Below are positions 4,606 to 52,068 of a DNA stretch of 64,000 bases, piece after piece; positions within the stretch are counted from its first letter, which is position 1; each line of letters opens with the position of its first letter. The notes beneath the pieces were generated by a model. That model made no database searches, was not told the origin of the DNA, and saw only the letters and a list, made by a program, of their open reading frames with translations. Both the position numbers and the translations under genes were made by a program. The stretch comes from Candidatus Yanofskybacteria bacterium RIFCSPHIGHO2_01_FULL_44_24 (lineage in GTDB: Bacteria > Patescibacteriota > Minisyncoccia > 2-02-FULL-40-12 > GWA2-44-9): NCBI GenBank assembly GCA_001794215.1, contig MGJK01000012.1:80818-144817 (forward strand), given 5' to 3'.

Positions 4606-5584
4606 TTTCTCTAATTATACAAAAGATGCCATGGGAAGTAATAAAATAAAAGTGGTTGTTACCGGCGGAGCCGGATTTATCGGCTCTAATTTAGTTGATG
4701 CCTTGGTAGGCGAAGGCTTTGATGTCCATGTGATTGATAATCTATCGAATGGAAAAAGGGGGAATGTAAATAAGAAGGCTCAACTGCATATTCAGGATAT
4801 TGCTGATATTAAAAACATCCAGCCGATAATAAACGGCGCCGAATATGTTTTTCATTTAGCGGCACTGCCTCGGGTTCAGTATTCCATCGAGAACCCCATC
4901 GAAAGCGATACGGCTAATGTAAGGGGGACGTTGAATGTCCTGGTTGCCTCTAAGAATGCCGGCGTAAAAAGAGTTATATATTCGGCCTCAAGCTCTGCCT
5001 ATGGCGACCAAAAGAAAATGCCACTCAAAGAGACAATGACCCCTTCTCCCAAAAGCCCCTACGGACTTCAAAAATATATTGGCGAATTATATTGTAAACT
5101 ATGGAGCGAAATTTATGGCTTACCGACTGTTTGTTTGCGCTACTTTAACGTTTACGGTCCTCGCCAGAATTCAGAAGGAGCCTATGCGCTTGTGATTGCT
5201 AAGTTTTTTAAGCAGTTATCCGGCGGTAAACCGATGACGATAACGGGCGACGGAAAACAAACCAGGGACTTCACGAGCGTCCATGATATTGTTCGGGCAA
5301 ATATTTTGGCTATGAAAAGCAATAAGGTGGGCAGGGGAGAGTCTATTAATATCGGGGCCGGCAGGAACCAGTCGATAGATGAAATAGCCCGGCTAATCGG
5401 CGGACCTAAGAAATATATTTCAGCCCGGCTGGAACCTCATGACACTTTAGCCGACAACTCTTTGGCCCAACAACTTTTAGGCTGGAGGCCGAAGGTTAGT
5501 ATTGAAGATGGGATAGAAGAATTAAAGAGCCACCCCTGTCTGTGCGGTTCTATGGAAAAGTTTAAAGAGTGTCATGGGATATAA
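4580..5584 (+). CDS. NAD-dependent epimerase/dehydratase (UDP-sugar 4-epimerase-like) with an appended C-terminal SEC-C metal-binding motif
   Basis: Rossmann motif VVVTGGAGFIGSNLVDAL and the YxxxK catalytic region (SPYGLQKYIGE). The final 17 residues, HPCLCGSMEKFKECHGI, match the SEC-C CxCGSxxK[FY]KxCHG motif. Confidence 0.85.
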   Translation: MRKKVIPNNFSNYTKDAMGSNKIKVVVTGGAGFIGSNLVDALVGEGFDVHVIDNLSNGKRGNVNKKAQLHIQDIADIKNIQPIINGAEYVFHLAALPRVQYSIENPIESDTANVRGTLNVLVASKNAGVKRVIYSASSSAYGDQKKMPLKETMTPSPKSPYGLQKYIGELYCKLWSEIYGLPTVCLRYFNVYGPRQNSEGAYALVIAKFFKQLSGGKPMTITGDGKQTRDFTSVHDIVRANILAMKSNKVGRGESINIGAGRNQSIDEIARLIGGPKKYISARLEPHDTLADNSLAQQLLGWRPKVSIEDGIEELKSHPCLCGSMEKFKECHGI

Positions 5585-6110
5585 AAACATGGTTGGATTA
5601 AAACGAGGAATGGTAAAATTAGTACCGCATAATCCCGAATGGGACGAGTTGTTTCAGTCGGAGAGGATGAAGTTACTTAAAGTATTTGGTGATCTTGTTG
5701 TGGATATCCAACACATAGGCAGTACCGCAATTCCCACCATACCAGCGAAGCCCATAATTGATATTGCCATTTTGGTGAAATTGCTTAAAGAAGTTAATAA
5801 TTATGTAGAAAAGATAGGGAGGTTAGGATATCAAAAAAAGCAGGAAAATAGACCAGAAAGATTGTTTTTTACGAAAGGGCCAGAAGACAATAGAATTGTT
5901 TACCTGCATGTTGGGGACGATAGTACGAATTACATTAAGGATATGATTCTATTTCGAGATTACCTGATACAGAATCCAAGGGAAGCTAAAAGATACGCAG
6001 ATTTTAAACAGGAATTGGCAGAAAAATTTGCAGATAATCGTGAACCATATACTGCCGCGAAAGAAAAGTTCGTTCAGGAAGCGATTGATAGGGCGAAGGC
6101 GTCAAGGTAA
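5574..6110 (+). CDS. GrpB/UPF0157 family nucleotidyltransferase-like protein
   Basis: 178 aa. LVPHNPEWDELFQ...IQHIGSTAIPTIPAKPIIDIAILV is the GrpB signature. Confidence 0.75.
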   Translation: MGYKNMVGLKRGMVKLVPHNPEWDELFQSERMKLLKVFGDLVVDIQHIGSTAIPTIPAKPIIDIAILVKLLKEVNNYVEKIGRLGYQKKQENRPERLFFTKGPEDNRIVYLHVGDDSTNYIKDMILFRDYLIQNPREAKRYADFKQELAEKFADNREPYTAAKEKFVQEAIDRAKASR

Positions 6111-6126
6111 ATAAAAAAGCCCGAAT

Positions 6127-6294
6127 TCATCGGTCTGGGAACAGGCGATCTTTGATGGGAGCAATGCGCTGGGCTCTTTCGCGTACGTCTTCTTCGTCCA
6201 GTTCATCGGTGGGCCGGCCATTCCATAATATTTCAATTTGTTGATCAGAATAATCGTATTCTTTCAGTATTTCTGCGAATCTTTCTCGAGTCAT
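6127..6294 (-). CDS. Small hypothetical ORF (55 aa), hand-called
   Basis: ATG...TGA ORF MTRERFAEILKEYDYSDQQIEILWNGRPTDELDEEDVRERAQRIAPIKDRLFPDR, convergent with grpB. Not in the ORF track (under 60 aa) and shows no homology signal. Confidence 0.2.
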   Translation of the reverse strand: MTRERFAEILKEYDYSDQQIEILWNGRPTDELDEEDVRERAQRIAPIKDRLFPDR

Positions 6295-17821: not shown

Positions 17822-18200
17822 GTTAGGGAGGGCTCGATCTATAGGGCACGGCATAAATTTCTGGTGAAATTTTGCCTTTTGCTCGCCTCGGCCAGTCTGC
17901 GCAAATCCCTATAAATCAGGCCCTCCCTAACGATCAGGTAGCCAAATCAATTATTATTTTAGGGATTTACGCAAAACTACATAGCGAGCCCCCTTGTCTA
18001 TCTGAGGCATTTGAGACCCCGCCCCTTGCATGGTTCTGAAGGGGCGGGGCGAACATAGCTGAGTCCCGTCGTTGGCGGGACGGAGGCGTGCTGAAGATAG
18101 ATAGGGGGTGAGTAAAATTTATGGCATGCCTCGAATAAGCCAAGGCTGAGAGGCTTTTATGTCGTGCTCGAAAGAGACTTGCTTATCGGCTTATTAGCAT
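17822..18200. repeat. Modular intergenic repeat element, locus B (about 108-nt unit bounded by 11-bp perfect inverted repeats)
   Basis: ttagggagggc (17823-17833) and gccctccctaa (17920-17930) flank a segment containing tatagggcacggcataaa and gcgcaaatccct. The locus also holds a GC-only 9-bp hairpin ccccgcccc/ggggcgggg (18017-18049), gcatttgagacccc, and cctcgaataagccaaggctgag (18129-18150). Confidence 0.75.
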
Positions 18201-19645: not shown

Positions 19646-21211
19646 ATGACGGGGCTTTTTATTTTTCAGGAAGTAAATTTCTCGGCGGCTTTAAAGCATC
19701 ATCTTCATCATCTTTCCAAGTGCAGAATTTTTATATACAATTGGCTTATGTCTAAACTTAAATTAACGGGTGACCATTTTTATAAATTTTTCCAGTGTCC
19801 TCATTGGATTTGGTACGATATCTACGGCGAAGCCAAAAAGAGGAGGGAAGCTCCGCCTCTGTTAGAGATGATTTATAAGGGCAAGGTTGCACAGGCTAAT
19901 CAAACTCTGGGCCAGCATAAAAAATTCGAAGAGGTTAAGCCGGAACTTTTGCGTGATTTGGACGAGGGTTTTTTGGCTACCTTAGAGCTTATGAAAAAGG
20001 GAAAAAATATATATCACGGAGTTTTGATGAGCGAAAATTGGGTCGGGATGCCGGATCTTCTTGAGGCAAGGCCCGGTAAGTCGGATCTTGGCGATTGGTA
20101 TTATGTTGTCTACGACGTTAAAAGCTCTCTCGATCTAAGCGATGAGTACAAGTTTCAGCTTATTTTTTACAGTTTGATACTTGAGCGTCTTCAGGGCGTG
20201 AGGCCGAAGGAGGCTTATGTCATAGATGCCGAAGGCACCGAAAGGGCGTTTGCGATTGATGATTATATCGATCAATTCCATCTGACTCGTCAGCAGATAG
20301 AGAAAATTCTTGACGGTGAAAAGCCCGCCCCATTTCTAAAGAGCGGCTGTAAAAGAACTCCTTGGTATTCTCTTTGTATTTCCGAGACTGAGGGCTGTGA
20401 CGACGTTTCGCTTATATACAAGATCAGCCAAGCCGATCAGAGGCGTCTTTATGAGGTGGGAGTCAAAACAGCTCACGATATGGCCGATGCCGATGTCAAC
20501 CAGCTTCAGGCTAAATTGGAAGACTGGCCTTTTGATAAAATTATCAGGTTCAGCAATCAGGCCAAGTGCCTGATAAGTCAGGAGCCCAAAATTTTAAGAA
20601 AGCCCAATTTTCCCGACGTAGCCCACGAAATTTATTTTGATATTGAGAGCGACCCCACTCGGGATATAGATTATTTGCTCGGTTTTGTTATAAAAAGTAA
20701 AACAAGCCCCGAGGAAGTTAAGTACGAGTATTTTTTTGCCAATGATAAAAGCGAAGAGCCGGAGATGTGGAGAAAGTTCTTAGATTTTTTGGCTGGCTTG
20801 GATAATTTCGTCATCTACCACTATGCGTTTTACGAAAGGCAGGTTTTCGATCGCTTAGCTCTTCGTTACGGTGCCCCCACTACATTAATAAATAAATTCA
20901 AAGATAATACGATCGACCTTCATCTCAAATTAGTTGATTCAGCCGTTCTGCCGCTGTACTTCTATGGTCTCAAAGATGTTGCCGGATACTTGGGGTATAA
21001 ATGGGATAATCCCGAGGCGGGAGGAGCGGAGTCTGTTGTCTGGTATAATGACTGGCTTGATAAAAAGGACCTGCCTGACCGGCAGGCAGGCGATGCGATC
21101 CTCAAGAAGATTTTAAAATACAACGAAGACGATGTCCGGGCCACCTTGCTGATTAAAGAATGGCTCTCTTCTCAAAAACCATCCAAGCATAAGGAGAGCT
21201 TAGACGAGTAG
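19646..21211 (+). CDS. TM0106-family RecB-like PD-(D/E)XK nuclease with a C-terminal RNase-H-like (exonuclease-like) domain
   Basis: N-terminal FFQCPHWIWYD Cys motif. VYDVKSSLDLSDEYKFQLIFYSLILE (D..K PD-(D/E)XK). C-terminal IYFDIESDP...DYLLGF. The likely start is the internal MSKLKLTGD. Confidence 0.65.
   Translation: MTGLFIFQEVNFSAALKHHLHHLSKCRIFIYNWLMSKLKLTGDHFYKFFQCPHWIWYDIYGEAKKRREAPPLLEMIYKGKVAQANQTLGQHKKFEEVKPELLRDLDEGFLATLELMKKGKNIYHGVLMSENWVGMPDLLEARPGKSDLGDWYYVVYDVKSSLDLSDEYKFQLIFYSLILERLQGVRPKEAYVIDAEGTERAFAIDDYIDQFHLTRQQIEKILDGEKPAPFLKSGCKRTPWYSLCISETEGCDDVSLIYKISQADQRRLYEVGVKTAHDMADADVNQLQAKLEDWPFDKIIRFSNQAKCLISQEPKILRKPNFPDVAHEIYFDIESDPTRDIDYLLGFVIKSKTSPEEVKYEYFFANDKSEEPEMWRKFLDFLAGLDNFVIYHYAFYERQVFDRLALRYGAPTTLINKFKDNTIDLHLKLVDSAVLPLYFYGLKDVAGYLGYKWDNPEAGGAESVVWYNDWLDKKDLPDRQAGDAILKKILKYNEDDVRATLLIKEWLSSQKPSKHKESLDE
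21070..21090. repeat. GC-rich near-palindrome cctgcctg(a)ccggcaggcagg, copy inside a coding region
   Basis: 21-nt in-frame copy encoding DLPDRQAG in the nuclease gene. 20-nt perfect-palindrome copies occur at 29631-29650 and 51709-51728. Confidence 0.8.
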
Positions 21212-26138: not shown

Positions 26139-27929
26139 ATGCCAGACAATGACGAACAATTAATAGTACTTGGTGAAACCAACTTCAGAAACCACAGGTC
26201 TCGTTTCGGAATAAAGACCGACGATCGGAGGCGCCATATGTATGTCGTCGGTTCAACCGGCATGGGCAAGTCGGAATTTTTGAAGAATATGGCCATTCAG
26301 GACATTGAAGCCGGCCATGGCGTGGCGTTTATCGATCCTCACGGCGATCCGTCCAACGACCTTCTCGATCATATACCCGCCCATAGAATCAAAGACGTTA
26401 TTTATTTCGACCCCGGAGACTTAGAGTACCCGATTGCATTCAATGTGATGGAGGGCGTCGGTTTTGATTACCGTCATTTGGTAGCCAGCGGTTTGGTCGG
26501 AGTATTCAAAAAAATATGGGGAGTTGAGGCGTGGTCCGGAAGAATGGAATATATTCTTAACAATACCATCTTGGCTCTCTTGGAGTATCCGGATTCTACC
26601 TTATTAGGAATAAACCGGCTGATGTCGAATAAAGAATACCGCAAGAAAGTCGTTTCTTCGCTCAAGGACCCGATCGTAAAAGGGTTCTGGGTGGAGGAGT
26701 TCGCAAAGTATGCCGATAAGTTCGCCACAGAAGCTACGGCCGCCATTCAGAATAAAGTCGGTCAGTTCTCTTCCAACAATCTGATCAGGAACATCATTGG
26801 CCAGTCAAACTCCAAATTAGATATCAGGAAAATAATGGATGAGGGGAAAATCCTCATTGCCAACGTTTCGCGGGGTAAAATAGGAGAAGACGCCTCCCGT
26901 CTTTTAGGAGCCTTCTTGGTCACCAAGATCCAGTTAGCGGCTATGTCCCGGGTTGATATTCCTGAGAACAAAAGGCGCGACTTTTATCTTTATGTCGACG
27001 AATTTCAGCACTTTGCCACGGAATCATTCGCCAACATTCTTTCCGAGGCGAGAAAATTCCATTTAAGCCTGACCATGGCCCATCAGTATATCAAACAGAT
27101 GGAAGAGCCGGTCAGGGATGCCGTTTTCGGCAACGTCGGAACCATCGTGACATTCAGAGTCGGAGCGGAGGACGCTGAATTTTTAGAAAAATGGTTTGCT
27201 CCGGATTTTATGATGGCGGATATAGTGAATCTTGGAAAATACAATATATATCTCAAGCTGATGATAGACGGAATTTCATCAAAGGGTTTTTCGGCTGCCA
27301 CTCTGCCGCCTTTTCCCCCGATGGATAAGAGCAATCGGGAAGCAATCATTGATTATTCCCGAAAGAATTACGGAACGCCGCGGGCCGAGGTTGAGGCCGG
27401 TATCGCCGAATGGGCCGGGATGCTTGAGTCCAAAACCGAGCAGGCAAGAGACGACAGACCGCGCCAATTTCGCGACGACAACAGGTCGGCGCAGAGATTT
27501 GATGACAGACCGCGCGCTCCTCGCTCAAACTACGACGCAGGGAGCAGATATGATAATGGTCCCAGGGATTTTCGTCGCGACGACAGAAGCGGCGGAGGAC
27601 AGGTCCGCGATATAAACAGAGATTTTTCTATTCAACAGCGGGCGCCGGCACCTCAGAAATTTCCGGATAGGCCTCCGGTTCAGCCAAGGCAGCCTATTGC
27701 ACAGCCTATGCCCGAAAGAAAACCCGAGCCAAAATTAGAACTAAAACCGGATTTGCCCAAACCGAAACCATCCGGCCTCTCTTTGGACGAAACTTTAAAA
27801 TCCGGGCCGGTTAATTTCAGGGGCCAAAAAATAGAACCTCGACAGCCCAAAGAAAAGAAAGAGGTTGATACGGGGGAATTGAGGAAGATCTTAGAGGGAA
27901 TGGGCAAGAAGGAGGAACAGAGCGGATAA
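26139..27929 (+). CDS. Type IV coupling protein-like P-loop ATPase (TraD/TraG/VirD4 family-like) with a long disordered R/D- and P-rich C-terminal tail
   Basis: Walker A VVGSTGMGKSEF and Walker B FYLYVDEFQHFA. IYFDPGDLEYPIAFNVME resembles the DP...NPL block of coupling proteins. The C-terminal approximately 170 aa are RDD/RD repeats then PxP-rich. No transmembrane segment. Confidence 0.55.
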   Translation: MPDNDEQLIVLGETNFRNHRSRFGIKTDDRRRHMYVVGSTGMGKSEFLKNMAIQDIEAGHGVAFIDPHGDPSNDLLDHIPAHRIKDVIYFDPGDLEYPIAFNVMEGVGFDYRHLVASGLVGVFKKIWGVEAWSGRMEYILNNTILALLEYPDSTLLGINRLMSNKEYRKKVVSSLKDPIVKGFWVEEFAKYADKFATEATAAIQNKVGQFSSNNLIRNIIGQSNSKLDIRKIMDEGKILIANVSRGKIGEDASRLLGAFLVTKIQLAAMSRVDIPENKRRDFYLYVDEFQHFATESFANILSEARKFHLSLTMAHQYIKQMEEPVRDAVFGNVGTIVTFRVGAEDAEFLEKWFAPDFMMADIVNLGKYNIYLKLMIDGISSKGFSAATLPPFPPMDKSNREAIIDYSRKNYGTPRAEVEAGIAEWAGMLESKTEQARDDRPRQFRDDNRSAQRFDDRPRAPRSNYDAGSRYDNGPRDFRRDDRSGGGQVRDINRDFSIQQRAPAPQKFPDRPPVQPRQPIAQPMPERKPEPKLELKPDLPKPKPSGLSLDETLKSGPVNFRGQKIEPRQPKEKKEVDTGELRKILEGMGKKEEQSG

Positions 27930-27986
27930 TCCTTTCACCTTCGGCACGTCTCCGATTGCTCCTGCGGTAATCTCAACTATTTCTCA

Positions 27987-28023
27987 CCCTGCCATTTCAG
28001 ATCCGAGCAAATGGCAGGGTTTC
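27987..28023 (+). terminator. Rho-independent terminator-like hairpin
   Basis: ccctgccatttcagatccgagcaaatggcaggg is a perfect 11-bp stem followed by ttt. Confidence 0.5.
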
Positions 28024-28230
28024 GAATGTCTCAGGTAAAAAGATTATCCGCTTTGTGGCAAGGTAGAAGCTGAGAAGTTGACCATGGCATCGAAAAACTA
28101 TTGTCGGAAACGGCGGGTTTGCCGGGGAGTGAATTTTTGAACTGTCTTGCGTCTATTGCACCTTGGGAGCCTTTCAAAAATCTACTCCTCGGTTTTAATT
28201 TTTACGGAACTGTGTTAAGTTAGGCTTATA

Positions 28231-29502
28231 ATGCCGAGCAAATATTATAAAAAATATATAAGGATTCCGCCGGGCGACAGTATTGATATCAGGAATATTT
28301 TGCCGGTTATAAACCATCCGCTTTTCCAGCGGCTTTTGCATATATCACAGCTCGGGACGACGCTGATGGTTTTTCCGGGAGCGACCCATAACCGACTTGA
28401 GCATGCCTTGGGAGTTTACGCTAAGGCGACCCGATTTTGCCGTAAGATGGCCCGGGAAGGCTTTCTGACAAAGTTTGAATCAGTTAATGTCCCGTTATTC
28501 GGGTTGCTTCATGACATAGGCCATGGCCCGTTTTCTCATGTTATCGAAGAGCTTACGCCTTTGAGTGGAGATGAAAATGAGAACGGACTTAAAGTCGTCC
28601 AGTTTTTTAAAAAAGAAATTAAAAAGGCCGGCGGCGATTACGACTTTATAATTTCTCTGTTTAAGCATAAAAATCCTTTGTATAAGATAATAATGGATAA
28701 GAACGTCGGCATGGATAAGCTTGATTATCTGGAACGGGATACTTACCATACCGGTTTTGGCCAGAGACCCGACATCGAGAGTCTTTTTAACTATTTGATT
28801 TTCTTAAAGGGCAAATTGGTAATCGATAAGAAATCTCTTGAGGCGGCCAAACAGATGCAAAGGCTCTATATATACATGTACAAAGAAGTCTATCTTCATA
28901 AGTCGGCCCTGATAAGCCAGAGGTTTTTGCAGAAGATGATTTCTTTATTCATAAAATTAGAAAAGGTTAACCCAAGAGATCTTTGGCTGATGAATGATGA
29001 GGAGCTGATGGCCAAGATCTATATCCATAACGATAAGAGGATCCAATTTCTGTACCAGTCCTATAGAAACAGGAATCTCCCAAGAACAGGATTAGTTTTC
29101 AGGATGAAAACAAGAAAATTCAGCGAGCGGGTCGCGGGAAAATCCATTAAGGTCATGGAAGAAGATGGGTCGTTTTTCGGTAAATTTTTAGAGCATTCCG
29201 AACCGGAAGACCTTGAGAATCTGGAAGAATTAGTTGGGAAGGCGCTGAAAGTGCCGGTGCATAAGATAGTGATTGTCCCGACCCTCACCCCGTGGCGTTT
29301 TGCTCCGGAAGATATCTTGTATCATGACGACGGCAGTATTCTGTCTCTAAAGAAATATTATCCAGAATATTTTAATGCGTTAAAATCCGAGCTCGGAGAC
29401 TATATGGCGGTCAGGGTCTGTATCGTCGGGAACAGGAGAGTGATCTATAAAAATGCCGCTAAGGTCCGTTCAATTATCAGGAGCTACCTTAAATCTAAAT
29501 AG
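28231..29502 (+). CDS. HD-domain dNTP triphosphohydrolase-like protein (dGTPase/SAMHD1 family)
   Basis: HNRLEHALGV ... GLLHDIGHGPFSH HD motifs in a protein of about 420 aa. Confidence 0.75.
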   Translation: MPSKYYKKYIRIPPGDSIDIRNILPVINHPLFQRLLHISQLGTTLMVFPGATHNRLEHALGVYAKATRFCRKMAREGFLTKFESVNVPLFGLLHDIGHGPFSHVIEELTPLSGDENENGLKVVQFFKKEIKKAGGDYDFIISLFKHKNPLYKIIMDKNVGMDKLDYLERDTYHTGFGQRPDIESLFNYLIFLKGKLVIDKKSLEAAKQMQRLYIYMYKEVYLHKSALISQRFLQKMISLFIKLEKVNPRDLWLMNDEELMAKIYIHNDKRIQFLYQSYRNRNLPRTGLVFRMKTRKFSERVAGKSIKVMEEDGSFFGKFLEHSEPEDLENLEELVGKALKVPVHKIVIVPTLTPWRFAPEDILYHDDGSILSLKKYYPEYFNALKSELGDYMAVRVCIVGNRRVIYKNAAKVRSIIRSYLKSK

Positions 29503-29564
29503 TCGAGATCTAATTTGTCGATCGCTTGGTTTTGTGATATAATTTTTTTGAATTTTTACTGATT

Positions 29565-29663
29565 TATATCCGCCCTTAGCCCCGGCTTCCTGTCGGCTTC
29601 GGTAGGAAATCAAATATATCCGCCCTTAGCCCTGCCTGCCGGCAGGCAGGTCAGTTGGTAGAG
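29565..29663 (+). repeat. Two partial 5' copies of the tRNA-Lys gene; the second is interrupted by a 20-bp perfect palindrome
   Basis: tatatccgcccttagc occurs at 29565-29580, at 29615-29630, and again at the intact tRNA (29913-29928). The second copy reads ccgcccttagc + cctgcctgccggcaggcagg + tcagttggtagag, which is tRNA positions 1-11, the inserted palindrome, then positions 12-24. Confidence 0.8.
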
Positions 29664-29669
29664 ATCAAT

Positions 29670-29909
29670 ATGTATTTTGTATATATTTTAAAAAGCGGCA
29701 AAGACGGCAATTTGTACATAGGCCTTACTAATAACATAGAGAGAAGGTTGAACGAGCATAATCGGGGCAGAAATTTATCTACAAAACACAGGGTGCCGTT
29801 TAAGCTTTTGTATCAGGAGCGGGTAGGTAGTAGAATTGAAGCAAGAAAGCGAGAAAAGTATTTCAAATCAGGAACTGGTCGGGAATGGATCAAAAGTAGC
29901 TTAAGATAA
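29670..29909 (+). CDS. GIY-YIG nuclease superfamily protein (small, UPF0213-like)
   Basis: MYFVYILKSGKDGNLYIGLTNNIERRLNEHNRG... is a canonical GIY-YIG module. The track ORF begins at TTG 29655, inside the duplicated tRNA D-arm segment. Confidence 0.85.
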   Translation: MYFVYILKSGKDGNLYIGLTNNIERRLNEHNRGRNLSTKHRVPFKLLYQERVGSRIEARKREKYFKSGTGREWIKSSLR

Positions 29910-29918
29910 TTTGTATAT

Positions 29919-29991
29919 CCGCCCTTAGCTCAGTTGGTAGAGCAGCTCCCTTTTAAGGAGACGGTCGTAGGTTCGACTCCTACAGGGCGGA
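29919..29991 (+). tRNA. tRNA-Lys (anticodon UUU)
   Basis: Hand-folded: 7-bp acceptor stem ccgccct/agggcgg, D arm gctc-agttggta-gagc, anticodon loop cTTTTaa, T arm gtagg-ttcgact-cctac, discriminator A, and no encoded CCA. Very similar to the E. coli tRNA-Lys(UUU) backbone. Confidence 0.85.
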
Positions 29992-30595
29992 CAATATAAA
30001 AAGTCAGCATTTTTTGGAGTGTTGGCAATTCGGGAATATGCCTTTTTGTATTGTATTTCCTGAATCTCTTTGTTTTGGAACCAAACGTTCCAAAGTAGTG
30101 AATTTATCATTTGATACCTTTTTGAATCTTCGCCATTTAAAAAGTCATTTTTGGCGTTTTTAGCTTGTAAAAATACTTCTTTTGTCCGTTCCAAAGTAGA
30201 TAAGGCGGTTTCCGGATTATCCTTTTTAGTCCGGCTTAACTGATTTTCTAATTCAACCCTCTGATTATTGAGTTCCCTTATCTTATCGTCATATAACTCA
30301 ATTCTAAGGCTTCCAGAGGCCATAGCATCAGCCAGGCGGGATTCTCTTTCGTCTATCAGTTTCAATTCTTTTTGAATACCGGAAATGATAGTTTCAGACC
30401 TATCACTTGCCCCTATCTTCTGTTTGGCCGCCTCATACATGATTTCAATGGCCTCATCATCAAAAGCCAGATCGCCAAGCTTATCGGCAATCATCTTTGT
30501 AATAATTTCTTCCCGCATATATGCCTTGCCCTGTTCGCAAGAACCCTTTCCATTTGTGCAGTAATAATACCTATAACCCTTCTGCCACAGAGTGC
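29992..30595 (-). pseudogene. C-terminal fragment of a large serine recombinase (zinc-ribbon remnant plus coiled-coil region); N-terminal catalytic domain absent
   Basis: The minus-strand frame upstream of the track ORF start reads STLWQKGYRYYYCTNGKGSCEQGKAY-MREEIITKMIADKL... This is the YYxC...C half of the recombinase zinc beta-ribbon, followed by about 180 aa of coiled-coil. An in-frame stop lies just upstream, so there is no resolvase domain. The track ORF 29925-30518 runs antisense through the tRNA, so its last roughly 20 codons are artefactual. Confidence 0.45.
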
Positions 30596-30660
30596 TTTAC
30601 TTAGTTCAAAAACCGTGCTATCGTATAGTGCGGTTTTTAGTTCGTTGAAAAGGAAGCGAT

Positions 30661-51630: not shown

Positions 51631-51639
51631 GCGCTCGGC

Positions 51640-52055
51640 TTTCAATCTACTAACGGCACGCCATAAAATGTTACTCGGGTTTAACCAATGAAGGGCACGA
51701 TGTAAATTCCTGCCTGCCGGCAGGCAGGTCTACTGAAATTTCATCTTTTACTCGCTCCAGTCGAGCTCCGTAAATCCCTTCATTGGCTAAACCCTCGCCC
51801 TGAGCTTGGTCAGCCTGCACAAATCCCTTAAGAGATTAAAAGCCTCGCTTGAAAAGCTCGGGGTCTCAAATGCTTCAGATGGACAAGGGGCTTCACCTTA
51901 GTTTTTTCGTAAATCCCTTCATGGGTTAAGGATTCGCTTGATGCTTGAACAAACAACCTGCGCAAAGATATTGTGGCTCTGGTTTTCGAACGGCCCTGAT
52001 GGGTCTTGACAAAAATTTTGGTTAGGTGTATTGTATCGTAAATCCATGAAGCAAC
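51640..52055. repeat. Modular intergenic repeat element, locus D
   Basis: Contains ggcacgccataaaatg, the palindrome cctgcctgccggcaggcagg (51709-51728), the hairpin gctc-cagtc-gagc then tccgtaaatccc (51754-51778), and three copies of the cgtaaatccc(t)tcatNGGNTAA word. Also has ggggtctcaaatgc, the reverse complement of gcatttgagacccc. Confidence 0.75.
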
Positions 52056-52068
52056 GGTAGGTGGTAAG

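Follow-up and report, generated by a model that had tools for sequence, protein, structure and literature searches.

The DNA analysed here is a 64,000-nt stretch (hereafter, the window) of contig MGJK01000012.1 from Candidatus Yanofskybacteria bacterium RIFCSPHIGHO2_01_FULL_44_24. Between a promoter-like site and the intact tRNA-Lys(UUU) gene of this window lie partial copies of the tRNA 5′ end, a perfect 20-bp palindrome (PAL) and a small open reading frame (ORF) for a putative stand-alone GIY-YIG nuclease. The features of the locus, in window coordinates, are as follows.

29515–29543, plus strand: promoter-like site, TTGTCG-17 nt-TATAAT with a TG extension, 10 of 12 matches
29565–29614, plus strand: unit 1, degenerate and ORF-less; leader nucleotides −5 to −1 and tRNA nucleotides 1–11 (29565–29580), then a decayed hairpin and the right arm CCCGGCTTCCTGTCGGCTTCGGTAGGAAATCAA
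29615–29630, plus strand: left arm of unit 2, leader nucleotides −5 to −1 and tRNA-Lys nucleotides 1–11, identical at 16 of 16 positions to 29914–29929
29631–29650, no strand assigned: PAL, CCTGCCTGCCGGCAGGCAGG, perfect 20-bp palindrome between tRNA nucleotides 11 and 12; hairpin of −13.9 kcal/mol
29651–29663, plus strand: right arm of unit 2, tRNA-Lys nucleotides 12–24, TCAGTTGGTAGAG, 13 nt, a length typical of the family
29670–29909, plus strand: predicted stand-alone GIY-YIG nuclease gene, 79 aa, SLX1/UPF0213 type (Pfam PF01541, family alignment)
29914–29918, plus strand: TATAT, the 5 nt of tRNA leader within the duplication (sequence reading, repeat finder)
29919–29992, plus strand: intact tRNA-Lys(UUU), the single tRNA of the window (ARAGORN); Rfam RF00005, 68.5 bits

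The 16-mer TATATCCGCCCTTAGC, composed of 5 nt of leader and tRNA-Lys nucleotides 1–11, was found at 29565–29580, 29615–29630 and 29914–29929 both by reading the sequence and with a repeat finder (families D1, D4 and I4). All three copies claimed in the original prediction are thus present, with the third starting at 29914 and not at 29913. The 11-mer CCGCCCTTAGC has three exact occurrences; with one mismatch allowed, it gives five matches versus 0.9 expected, a number reached in none of 100 shuffles, and for PAL no match is expected in shuffles. Without PAL, copy 2 is a 29-nt exact repeat running from leader nucleotide −5 to tRNA-Lys nucleotide 24. The palindrome splits it cleanly, no tRNA nucleotide being doubled or lost, which bears out the claim that nucleotides 1–11 and 12–24 are parted exactly by a perfect 20-bp palindrome. 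Unit 1 matches unit 2 at 82% over 33 nt (family D1), and the alignment extends through GGTAG..ATCAA with a 6-nt gap. Two observations go beyond the original prediction: copy 1 represents a degenerate unit devoid of the ORF, and PAL is conserved across phyla and repeated in the window at 51709.

The ORF had been proposed to start inside the D-arm copy. This holds for the mechanically called frame, whose TTG at 29655 lies within that copy; the start conserved in the family alignment (MYFVY) is the ATG at 29670, 6 nt outside it. The intact tRNA-Lys follows the ORF, as predicted. Both ARAGORN and Rfam report this one uninterrupted tRNA, and no second tRNA-like match was obtained with Rfam in 29000–30600 even at E ≤ 10, so that a second functional tRNA and an intron-bearing tRNA were both rejected. 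A group I intron was rejected as well: Rfam at E ≤ 10 gave the tRNA and no ribozyme, and what is inserted, a 20-nt hairpin, sits in a dead stub. No Rfam family matched the hairpin, the leader or the second PAL site. The first codons of the ORF (29673–29684, TATTTTGTATAT) and the pre-tRNA leader (29907–29918, TAATTTGTATAT) form a 12-nt direct repeat with one mismatch (family D11); recombination between them would remove the ORF, and the repeat may be due to chance in AT-rich DNA.

The promoter-like site lies just 5′ of copy 1, in a region alignable to a relative bearing an empty site (L206, below), and no terminator-like site was found from it to tRNA-Lys. Judged from the DNA, it is probably the original promoter of the tRNA-Lys gene. 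With this site just upstream and no terminator before the tRNA, the 5′ stub would occupy the former place of the tRNA 5′ end.

The 79-aa protein matched PF01541 with E = 5.9e-16 (59 bits versus a cut-off of 22.6). Residues Y5, Y16, G18, R26, H30 and E62 are invariant in 34 sequences, and the intact catalytic residues suggest an active enzyme. Profile searches against the PDB gave 1ywl (8.7e-13), 1zg2 (1.3e-12) and SLX1 7cq2 (4.7e-7). The protein ends after the catalytic domain, with no C-terminal DNA-binding domain of the kind found in the Seg/I-TevI type; TIGR01453 scored 22.6 bits versus a cut-off of 56, and the NCBIfam and PHROG models of homing endonucleases matched weakly, below their cut-offs. 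By its sequence, we class the protein as a minimal GIY-YIG protein of the SLX1/UPF0213 type, reduced to the catalytic domain. It was rejected as a homologue of SegB, a phage T4 homing endonuclease, because hhalign aligned 24 columns with a probability of 5% and the likeness was limited to the GIY-YIG motif. A 100% identical protein is encoded by Candidatus Yanofskybacteria RIFCSPHIGHO2_02_FULL_44_12b, a bacterium of the Candidate Phyla Radiation (CPR), and a profile search of 1.84 billion representative proteins returned 8,389 matches at E ≤ 1e-10. Searches of phage and plasmid collections (tblastn, E ≤ 1e-8) found no homologue, giving no support to carriage by phages or plasmids.

An empty site and recurrence at many tRNA genes

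Ten public assemblies have the identical arrangement (loci are referred to below by L numbers). The compared stretch is identical wherever the contig extends: over 531 nt (29480–30010) in L001 and L002, over 496 nt in L003 and over 490 nt (29503–29992) in L209–L214; the records L209 and L213 are those of L001 and L002 again. The only one to differ is L215, which deviates solely at four bases of the tRNA 3′ end. The copies being present in every independent assembly, an assembly artefact was rejected.

The related genome L206 (GCA_964429675.1) provides the empty site. It shares 80% identity in the upstream HD gene as well as a conserved promoter region, and its tRNA-Lys, identical at 71 of 74 positions including one compensatory acceptor pair, lies 85 nt past the HD stop codon. 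Between promoter and tRNA-Lys it has no GIY-YIG gene, tRNA fragment or palindrome, so that the promoter runs straight into the tRNA; compared with it, the window has about 349 extra nt at this place. Related genomes thus differ by the presence of the nuclease gene at this locus, and relative to L206 the region is an insertion. An ordinary promoter duplication is contradicted by the same comparison, as the nuclease-free relative lacks the duplications, too. Together with the recurrence of the layout at many isotypes, described below, these results uphold the predicted footprint of insertion or duplication at the tRNA gene. Among the contigs encoding an identical HD protein, every one holds the unit, and no empty allele was found within the population; the empty site belongs to an 80%-identical lineage.

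To place the locus within its family, one genome per species was scanned with a 12-sequence alignment as seed. At least 507 stretches encode relatives, from which the best 80 loci were kept; the counts below cover 93 ORFs, from the 78 loci with a plus-strand match plus L001.

56 of 93 ORFs: co-oriented tRNA starting −30 to +60 nt from the ORF stop codon
18 of 93 ORFs: tRNA ending 0–80 nt before the ATG
5 of 93 ORFs: ORF internal to a tandem array
14 of 93 ORFs: no adjacent tRNA detected
68 of 93 ORFs: CCYGCC...GGCRGG hairpin within 120 nt
37 of 93 ORFs: exact PAL within 120 nt

A co-oriented tRNA thus adjoins 74 of the 93 ORFs. The loci are labelled as Patescibacteria, Bacteroidota (including the isolates Leeuwenhoekiella, Maribacter, Aequorivita and Spongiimicrobium), Ignavibacteriota and Omnitrophota, besides metagenome-assembled genomes labelled Planctomycetia, Gammaproteobacteria, Bdellovibrionales, Margulisiibacteriota and others. 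At least 12 isotypes are represented among the neighbouring tRNAs (Leu, Asn, Glu, Arg, Lys, Gln, His, Thr, Val, Ser, Cys and Ile). In most loci the far side of the ORF bears a partial copy of the same tRNA, so that direct repeats flank the ORF, and in many the ORF runs into the downstream tRNA, its stop codon falling inside at an offset of −10 or −22.

Tandem arrays were found in L057, L021, L025, L033, L071 and L083. The array in Leeuwenhoekiella blandensis MED217 (L057, 1560–2641) comprises three tandem 327-bp units before an intact tRNA-Arg(UCG), each consisting of tRNA-Arg nucleotides 1–32, PAL, an arm and the ORF; the first ORF copy has a nonsense TAA where the others read TCA. Units without the ORF, such as unit 1 of the window, also exist in L077 and L162. 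Protein clades track the tRNA isotype and the hairpin type in part only, and close proteins reside at different isotypes: the window protein, at tRNA-Lys, is 66% identical to that of L004, at tRNA-Leu(gag). Close proteins beside different tRNAs indicate isotype switching.

Many predicted proteins of the family bear tails that correspond to translated tRNA or hairpin DNA, for instance 'PACRQAG' and 'AELVD'. Such N- or C-terminal extensions, derived from translated tRNA genes or PAL, include PACRQAGQLVEV, AELVDARDLKSLG and ALSSNG (proteins P0003, P0005, P0022 and P0164–P0313), and some predicted GIY-YIG proteins are fused across tandem units. As read from the DNA, these tails are a systematic gene-calling artefact.

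The palindrome and its relatives

In most loci, the partial tRNA copy is split by a GC-rich hairpin with the ends CCYGCC...GGCRGG, the tRNA coordinates on its two sides being contiguous, with no duplication. The split falls mostly between tRNA nucleotides 21 and 22, and also at 9–12, 15, 32, 39 and 71, while the tRNA arm left between the hairpin and the ORF leader measures 8–14 nt in 27 of 41 cases. The commonest hairpin of the family is the exact 20-mer PAL, found beside nucleases that are 50–66% identical in loci labelled as Patescibacteria, Bacteroidota, Ignavibacteriota, Omnitrophota, Planctomycetota and others. Among the variants are a 35-nt form at tRNA-Glu loci, CCCGCCTGYGGCGGG at Lys and Asn loci (three in tandem in L027, at tRNA position 11 as in the window) and CCCGCCTCCGGCGGG followed by TAAA, in either orientation (L006, L011). 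One PAL is nested in another in L073, two stand in tandem in L004, several hairpins share one stub in L010 and L077, and more than one hairpin type occurs per locus in L077, L062 and L051. PAL is still perfect where the flanking arms have decayed. Wherever a hairpin lies upstream of the ORF, it ends at least 12 nt before the ATG; in other loci the hairpin is 3′ of the ORF, and in some it flanks the tRNA on both sides. Within 120 nt of the ORFs, 80 hairpins fall in 21.5 kb, versus 20 in the other 291 kb of the same loci, a 53-fold difference in density.

We consider the hairpin most likely to be a cis element of the module. The nuclease may recognise it as its DNA site, a role favoured because PAL is identical across phyla and its palindromic form would suit a dimer. 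It could also guard the ORF against deletion by splitting the direct repeat, or stabilise an mRNA end. Least likely, given the 53-fold enrichment beside the ORFs, is an independent repeat gathering in dead DNA.

The exact PAL is also dispersed. A second copy lies in the window at 51709–51728 (no strand assigned), in intergenic DNA with no tRNA or GIY-YIG gene nearby, and an exact-match scan of contigs found PAL in at least 120 metagenome stretches. Among the 127 metagenome sites listed, a GIY-YIG gene lies within 150 nt in 8 and a tRNA within 450 nt in 11, so that PAL as a constant companion of the nuclease gene was rejected. No target consensus was seen at the hairpin insertion points. Insertion at the apex of pre-existing hairpins was rejected as not significant (p = 0.06 versus 20,000 random positions), as was a miniature inverted-repeat transposable element: PAL is itself an inverted repeat, yet its insertions lack target-site duplications.

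The region around the second PAL (51631–52068) follows a RuvA-like ORF, as judged by reading the sequence, and contains three copies of the motif CGTAAATCC(C/A)T..CAT, at about 51770, 51909 and 52038; the inverted repeat TTAACCAATGAAGGG / CCCTTCATTGGCTAA brackets PAL there. Further hairpins with CCYGCC...GGCRGG ends are found in the window at 18018–18048 (31 nt), 21070–21086 (17 nt) and 27988–28018 (31 nt); one of the three falls within a long ORF, and the other two, in intergenic DNA, may be ordinary terminators.

Proposed spread of the module and rival explanations

The phage T4 protein SegB, encoded within the tRNA gene cluster of the phage, is a free-standing GIY-YIG homing endonuclease that cuts inside tRNA genes and reaches nearly 100% inheritance in crosses (PMC2330249). 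By analogy with it, we lean, if only slightly, towards the view that the region is one copy of a widespread selfish module that resides in bacterial tRNA leaders and spreads in a SegB-like manner. Supporting this are the empty site, the ten assemblies, the tRNA linkage, the direct repeats, the clean hairpin insertions, the enrichment of hairpins beside the ORFs, the arrays and their decay, the isotype switching, the intact catalytic residues, the promoter-like site with no terminator ahead of the tRNA, and the experimental precedent of SegB. Recurring at many tRNA genes in several phyla, the layout looks like an undescribed family of selfish DNA.

As with SegB, the mini-nuclease would break the DNA of a tRNA gene, and recombinational repair from an occupied copy would bring the nuclease gene and a piece of tRNA into the broken locus. 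Copying by repair would result in homing into empty tRNA loci, and unequal repair would leave tandem arrays as well as remnants devoid of the ORF, for example unit 1. As the insert includes direct repeats of leader nucleotide −5 to tRNA nucleotide 24, a complete tRNA stays downstream and a dead 5′ stub remains by the promoter. Read-through from the predicted tRNA promoter at 29515–29543 may then cover the stub, hairpin, ORF and tRNA as one transcript, from which RNase P would release the tRNA.

Several points weigh against this explanation. The 80 loci were picked by similarity to a tRNA-linked query, so that the linkage figure (74 of 93) may be inflated. The protein lacks a DNA-binding domain and resembles SegB in the motif alone, which leaves its finding of tRNA genes unexplained; the downstream intact tRNA retains any target site, so that the escape from self-cleavage is not obvious. 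Copy repair alone explains neither the first origin of repeats matching each new isotype nor the prevalence of the 8–14 nt arm (about 11 nt) between hairpin and ORF. Furthermore, at 119 of the 127 listed metagenome PAL sites there is no GIY-YIG gene nearby; the nuclease gene is nearly always near a hairpin, but most hairpins are without the nuclease gene. Finally, with no phage or plasmid homologue at E ≤ 1e-8, no vehicle between genomes is known.

The dispersal of PAL brings in the hairpin as the possible mobile entity. In REP/RAYT systems and the very small dispersed palindromic repeats of cyanobacteria, a short GC-rich palindrome is scattered through intergenic DNA and clustered around one nuclease gene, as may hold for PAL; their insertions, too, can nest and lack target duplications. 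PAL and its variants may accordingly be conceived as tiny non-autonomous mobile hairpins mobilised by the GIY-YIG protein, in the manner of a 'REPtron'; the nuclease would then be mostly cis-acting, saturating the dispensable tRNA stubs beside its own gene, and the tRNA site would serve expression or supply hairpin-forming DNA. This overlaps with the selfish module of tRNA leaders, with no mutual exclusion, but as an account of the locus we rate it rather unlikely. It agrees with the exact PAL beside 50–66%-identical nucleases in several phyla, with its dispersal (again at 51709 in the window, and in at least 120 stretches of metagenomes), and with clean insertions lacking target duplication that are nested (L073), tandem (L004, L027), multiple (L010, L077) or in both orientations (L006). 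The partial tracking of hairpin type by protein clade and the perfect PAL beside decayed arms fit as well, and the dispersal may be REP-like, there being two PAL copies in 64 kb, a 53-fold enrichment by the ORFs and dispersed copies in metagenomes. However, RAYTs are HUH/Y1 enzymes, whereas the window enzyme is a GIY-YIG protein, and REP families are lineage-specific, unlike the PAL identical across phyla. In the GIY-YIG superfamily, DNA hydrolysis proceeds without a covalent intermediate, and strand transfer would therefore call for other factors. The several hairpin types in one locus (L077, L062, L051), the absence of a visible target consensus and the non-significant preference for pre-existing hairpin loops (p = 0.06) also speak against it. 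In its boldest form, which we find doubtful though possible, PAL and its CCYGCC...GGCRGG relatives (15–40 bp) would be the smallest known mobile DNA, with the 79-aa GIY-YIG protein as their dedicated nuclease: a REP/RAYT-like pair on a different catalytic fold, in at least five bacterial phyla, colonising tRNA genes, with the nuclease expressed in tRNA leaders.

The nuclease might instead be kept for a benefit to the host: for example, where tRNA-cleaving toxins or phage attack, its breaks could induce the amplification or repair of tRNA genes, as has been shown for SegB and tRNA-Tyr; the stubs would be by-products. In phage T6, the tRNA amplification driven by SegB is indeed adaptive (PMC13096335); the family, with 8,389 representatives at E ≤ 1e-10, is very large and looks ancient, and its catalytic residues are conserved. 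The presence of the gene nevertheless varies between close relatives, some copies are pseudogenised (L057), ORF-less remnants exist, and the duplicated tRNA pieces are dead fragments rather than additional functional tRNAs. Because of the pseudogenes and the presence/absence variation, such a domesticated role is possible but not favoured, and we hold it distinctly unlikely.

Since the stub, hairpin and ORF lie within one predicted transcript, the stub and hairpin could also act at the RNA level: to stabilise the 5′ end, to divert RNase P or a toxin as a decoy, or as an RNA that acts on the nuclease like an antitoxin. The hairpin is stable (−13.9 kcal/mol), the leader folds somewhat better than its shuffles (z = −2.1), the hairpin ends at least 12 nt before the ATG, and the decayed hairpin of unit 1, as we read its sequence, can still pair via G-U. 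On the other hand, other loci have the hairpin 3′ of the ORF and some have it on each side of the tRNA, the part of the tRNA retained differs between stubs, PAL is widespread outside any such transcript, no Rfam family matches, and a mere stabilising stem needs no nucleotide-perfect palindrome across phyla. A device of this kind thus seems very improbable.

On the 3′ side of the tRNA lies a further feature.

29925–30518, minus strand: putative integrase gene remnant, C-terminal third (PHROG 95, profile positions 421–563 of 651, E = 2e-7)

This 197-aa ORF runs antisense through tRNA-Lys, overlapping its 3′ end; gene callers label it a hypothetical protein, and Pfam and NCBIfam gave no match. 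By its sequence, it looks like the decayed remnant of a separate element once integrated at the 3′ end of tRNA-Lys, outside the GIY-YIG unit. In L215 (3189–3264, corresponding to window 29977–29992 onward), tRNA-Lys is altered from the T-loop (…TTCGAATCCTACTGAGCGCACCA), only 4 of the 7 acceptor-stem positions pair, and the DNA that follows is unrelated; this stretch looks like the junction of a currently integrated element. Integrases duplicate a part of the tRNA at their own junction, usually the 3′ end. That the copies are an ordinary duplication or an integrase footprint, with the GIY-YIG gene as a passenger, is extremely improbable: the remnant and the replaced tRNA 3′ end of L215 do mark the locus as an integration hot spot, but the integrase junction is on the 3′ side and the copies, on the opposite side, are of 5′ parts, the layout of stub, hairpin and ORF recurs at dozens of tRNAs without an integrase, and the GIY-YIG unit of L215 is unchanged where its 3′ end is altered. 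An integrative element (integrase and att sites) as the unit itself was rejected, as the unit holds only the 79-aa ORF, the 5′ parts are duplicated and the integrase remnant lies beyond the tRNA.

Other neighbours were also noted. A DUF87/TrwB/TraG-like ATPase ORF and the HD/HD_assoc_2 gene lie 5′ of the tRNA (26139–29502) and are adjacent in several Yanofskybacteria contigs. In the Yanofskybacteria contig L207, ARAGORN reports a 'tRNA-Stop' (anticodon tta) at 5238–5311 with a LAGLIDADG_3 ORF 6 nt on (5317–6153), a second kind of homing-endonuclease gene adjoining a tRNA in this lineage.

Relation to known systems and significance

Among known systems, SegB shares the most with the selfish module of tRNA leaders. 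T6 SegB drives tandem amplification of a 718-bp unit of tRNA-Tyr and segB, which needs the nuclease activity and UvsX/UvsY and shows microhomology between the tRNA 5′ end and the segB 3′ end; SegB is enriched near tRNAs of many isotypes (PMC13096335). In T4 the order is tRNA-Ile, 41 nt, segB, 5 nt, tRNA-Arg. In both systems the nuclease gene is wedged between co-oriented tRNA genes and associated with many isotypes, with variable presence among relatives, and tandem units of tRNA and nuclease are formed, the nuclease 3′ end running into the tRNA 5′ end. SegB differs in size (221 aa, with a DNA-binding part, versus 79 aa and the catalytic domain only) and in residence: it is found in phages, while the 79-aa family was seen on contigs of bacterial chromosomes alone, phage and plasmid collections giving no match at 1e-8. 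Dead tRNA stubs split by a conserved palindrome are not reported for SegB loci.

The SLX1/UPF0213 group (COG2827) was described in a 2006 survey as a minimal, possibly ancestral form of GIY-YIG (PMC1564403). The best profile matches of the window protein fall here, and both have the minimal domain without the C-terminal Asn motif; the linkage to tRNA genes, the flanking repeats and the hairpin are not described for that group. The eukaryotic SLX1 is a structure-specific nuclease dependent on SLX4.

GIY-YIG ORFs have been reported in non-intron insertions of CPR rRNA genes, which are sparse, tRNA being unmentioned (PMC11270868). The organisms are of the same kind, and in both cases small GIY-YIG genes lie in or beside genes of structured RNAs, at stem-loops and not in group I or II introns; those insertions, however, interrupt the rRNA genes, whereas the tRNA gene of the window is kept whole by duplication. 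Keeping the invaded gene whole is also a feature of the GIY-YIG element type of Allomyces atp6, in which a free-standing endonuclease gene comes with a replacement part of the invaded gene, so that an essential gene can tolerate the insertion, and, as in the window, a dead fragment is left; that type differs in residing in organellar protein-coding genes, duplicating the 3′ part and having no hairpin.

The association of GIY-YIG homing endonucleases with tRNA genes (phage SegB) and the presence of GIY-YIG in CPR rRNA insertions are thus already known. In the full-text literature, subscription journals being outside its coverage, we found no description of the layout of tRNA stub, palindrome and GIY-YIG gene or of the 20-mer PAL, and no report of an SLX1/UPF0213-type mini-nuclease in bacterial tRNA leaders, with dead tRNA stubs or with a conserved palindrome.

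The module explains a recurrent annotation artefact, namely small GIY-YIG proteins with tails of translated tRNA or hairpin DNA, as well as pseudo-tRNA fragments beside tRNA genes. It is a concrete system for studying the spread of very short palindromic repeats. L. blandensis MED217, with its array, is a convenient carrier for experiments, being cultivable. A 20-bp sequence that is identical across phyla beside proteins of 50–66% identity represents a candidate protein–DNA recognition pair, and the size of 79 aa makes the protein easy to test and could make it a tool. If the favoured explanation is true, the large 'hypothetical' group of UPF0213/SLX1-like mini-nucleases (the 8,389 representatives above) would gain a role, and GIY-YIG homing elements that target tRNA genes, so far known in T-even phages alone (SegB), would extend to the chromosomes of many bacterial phyla.

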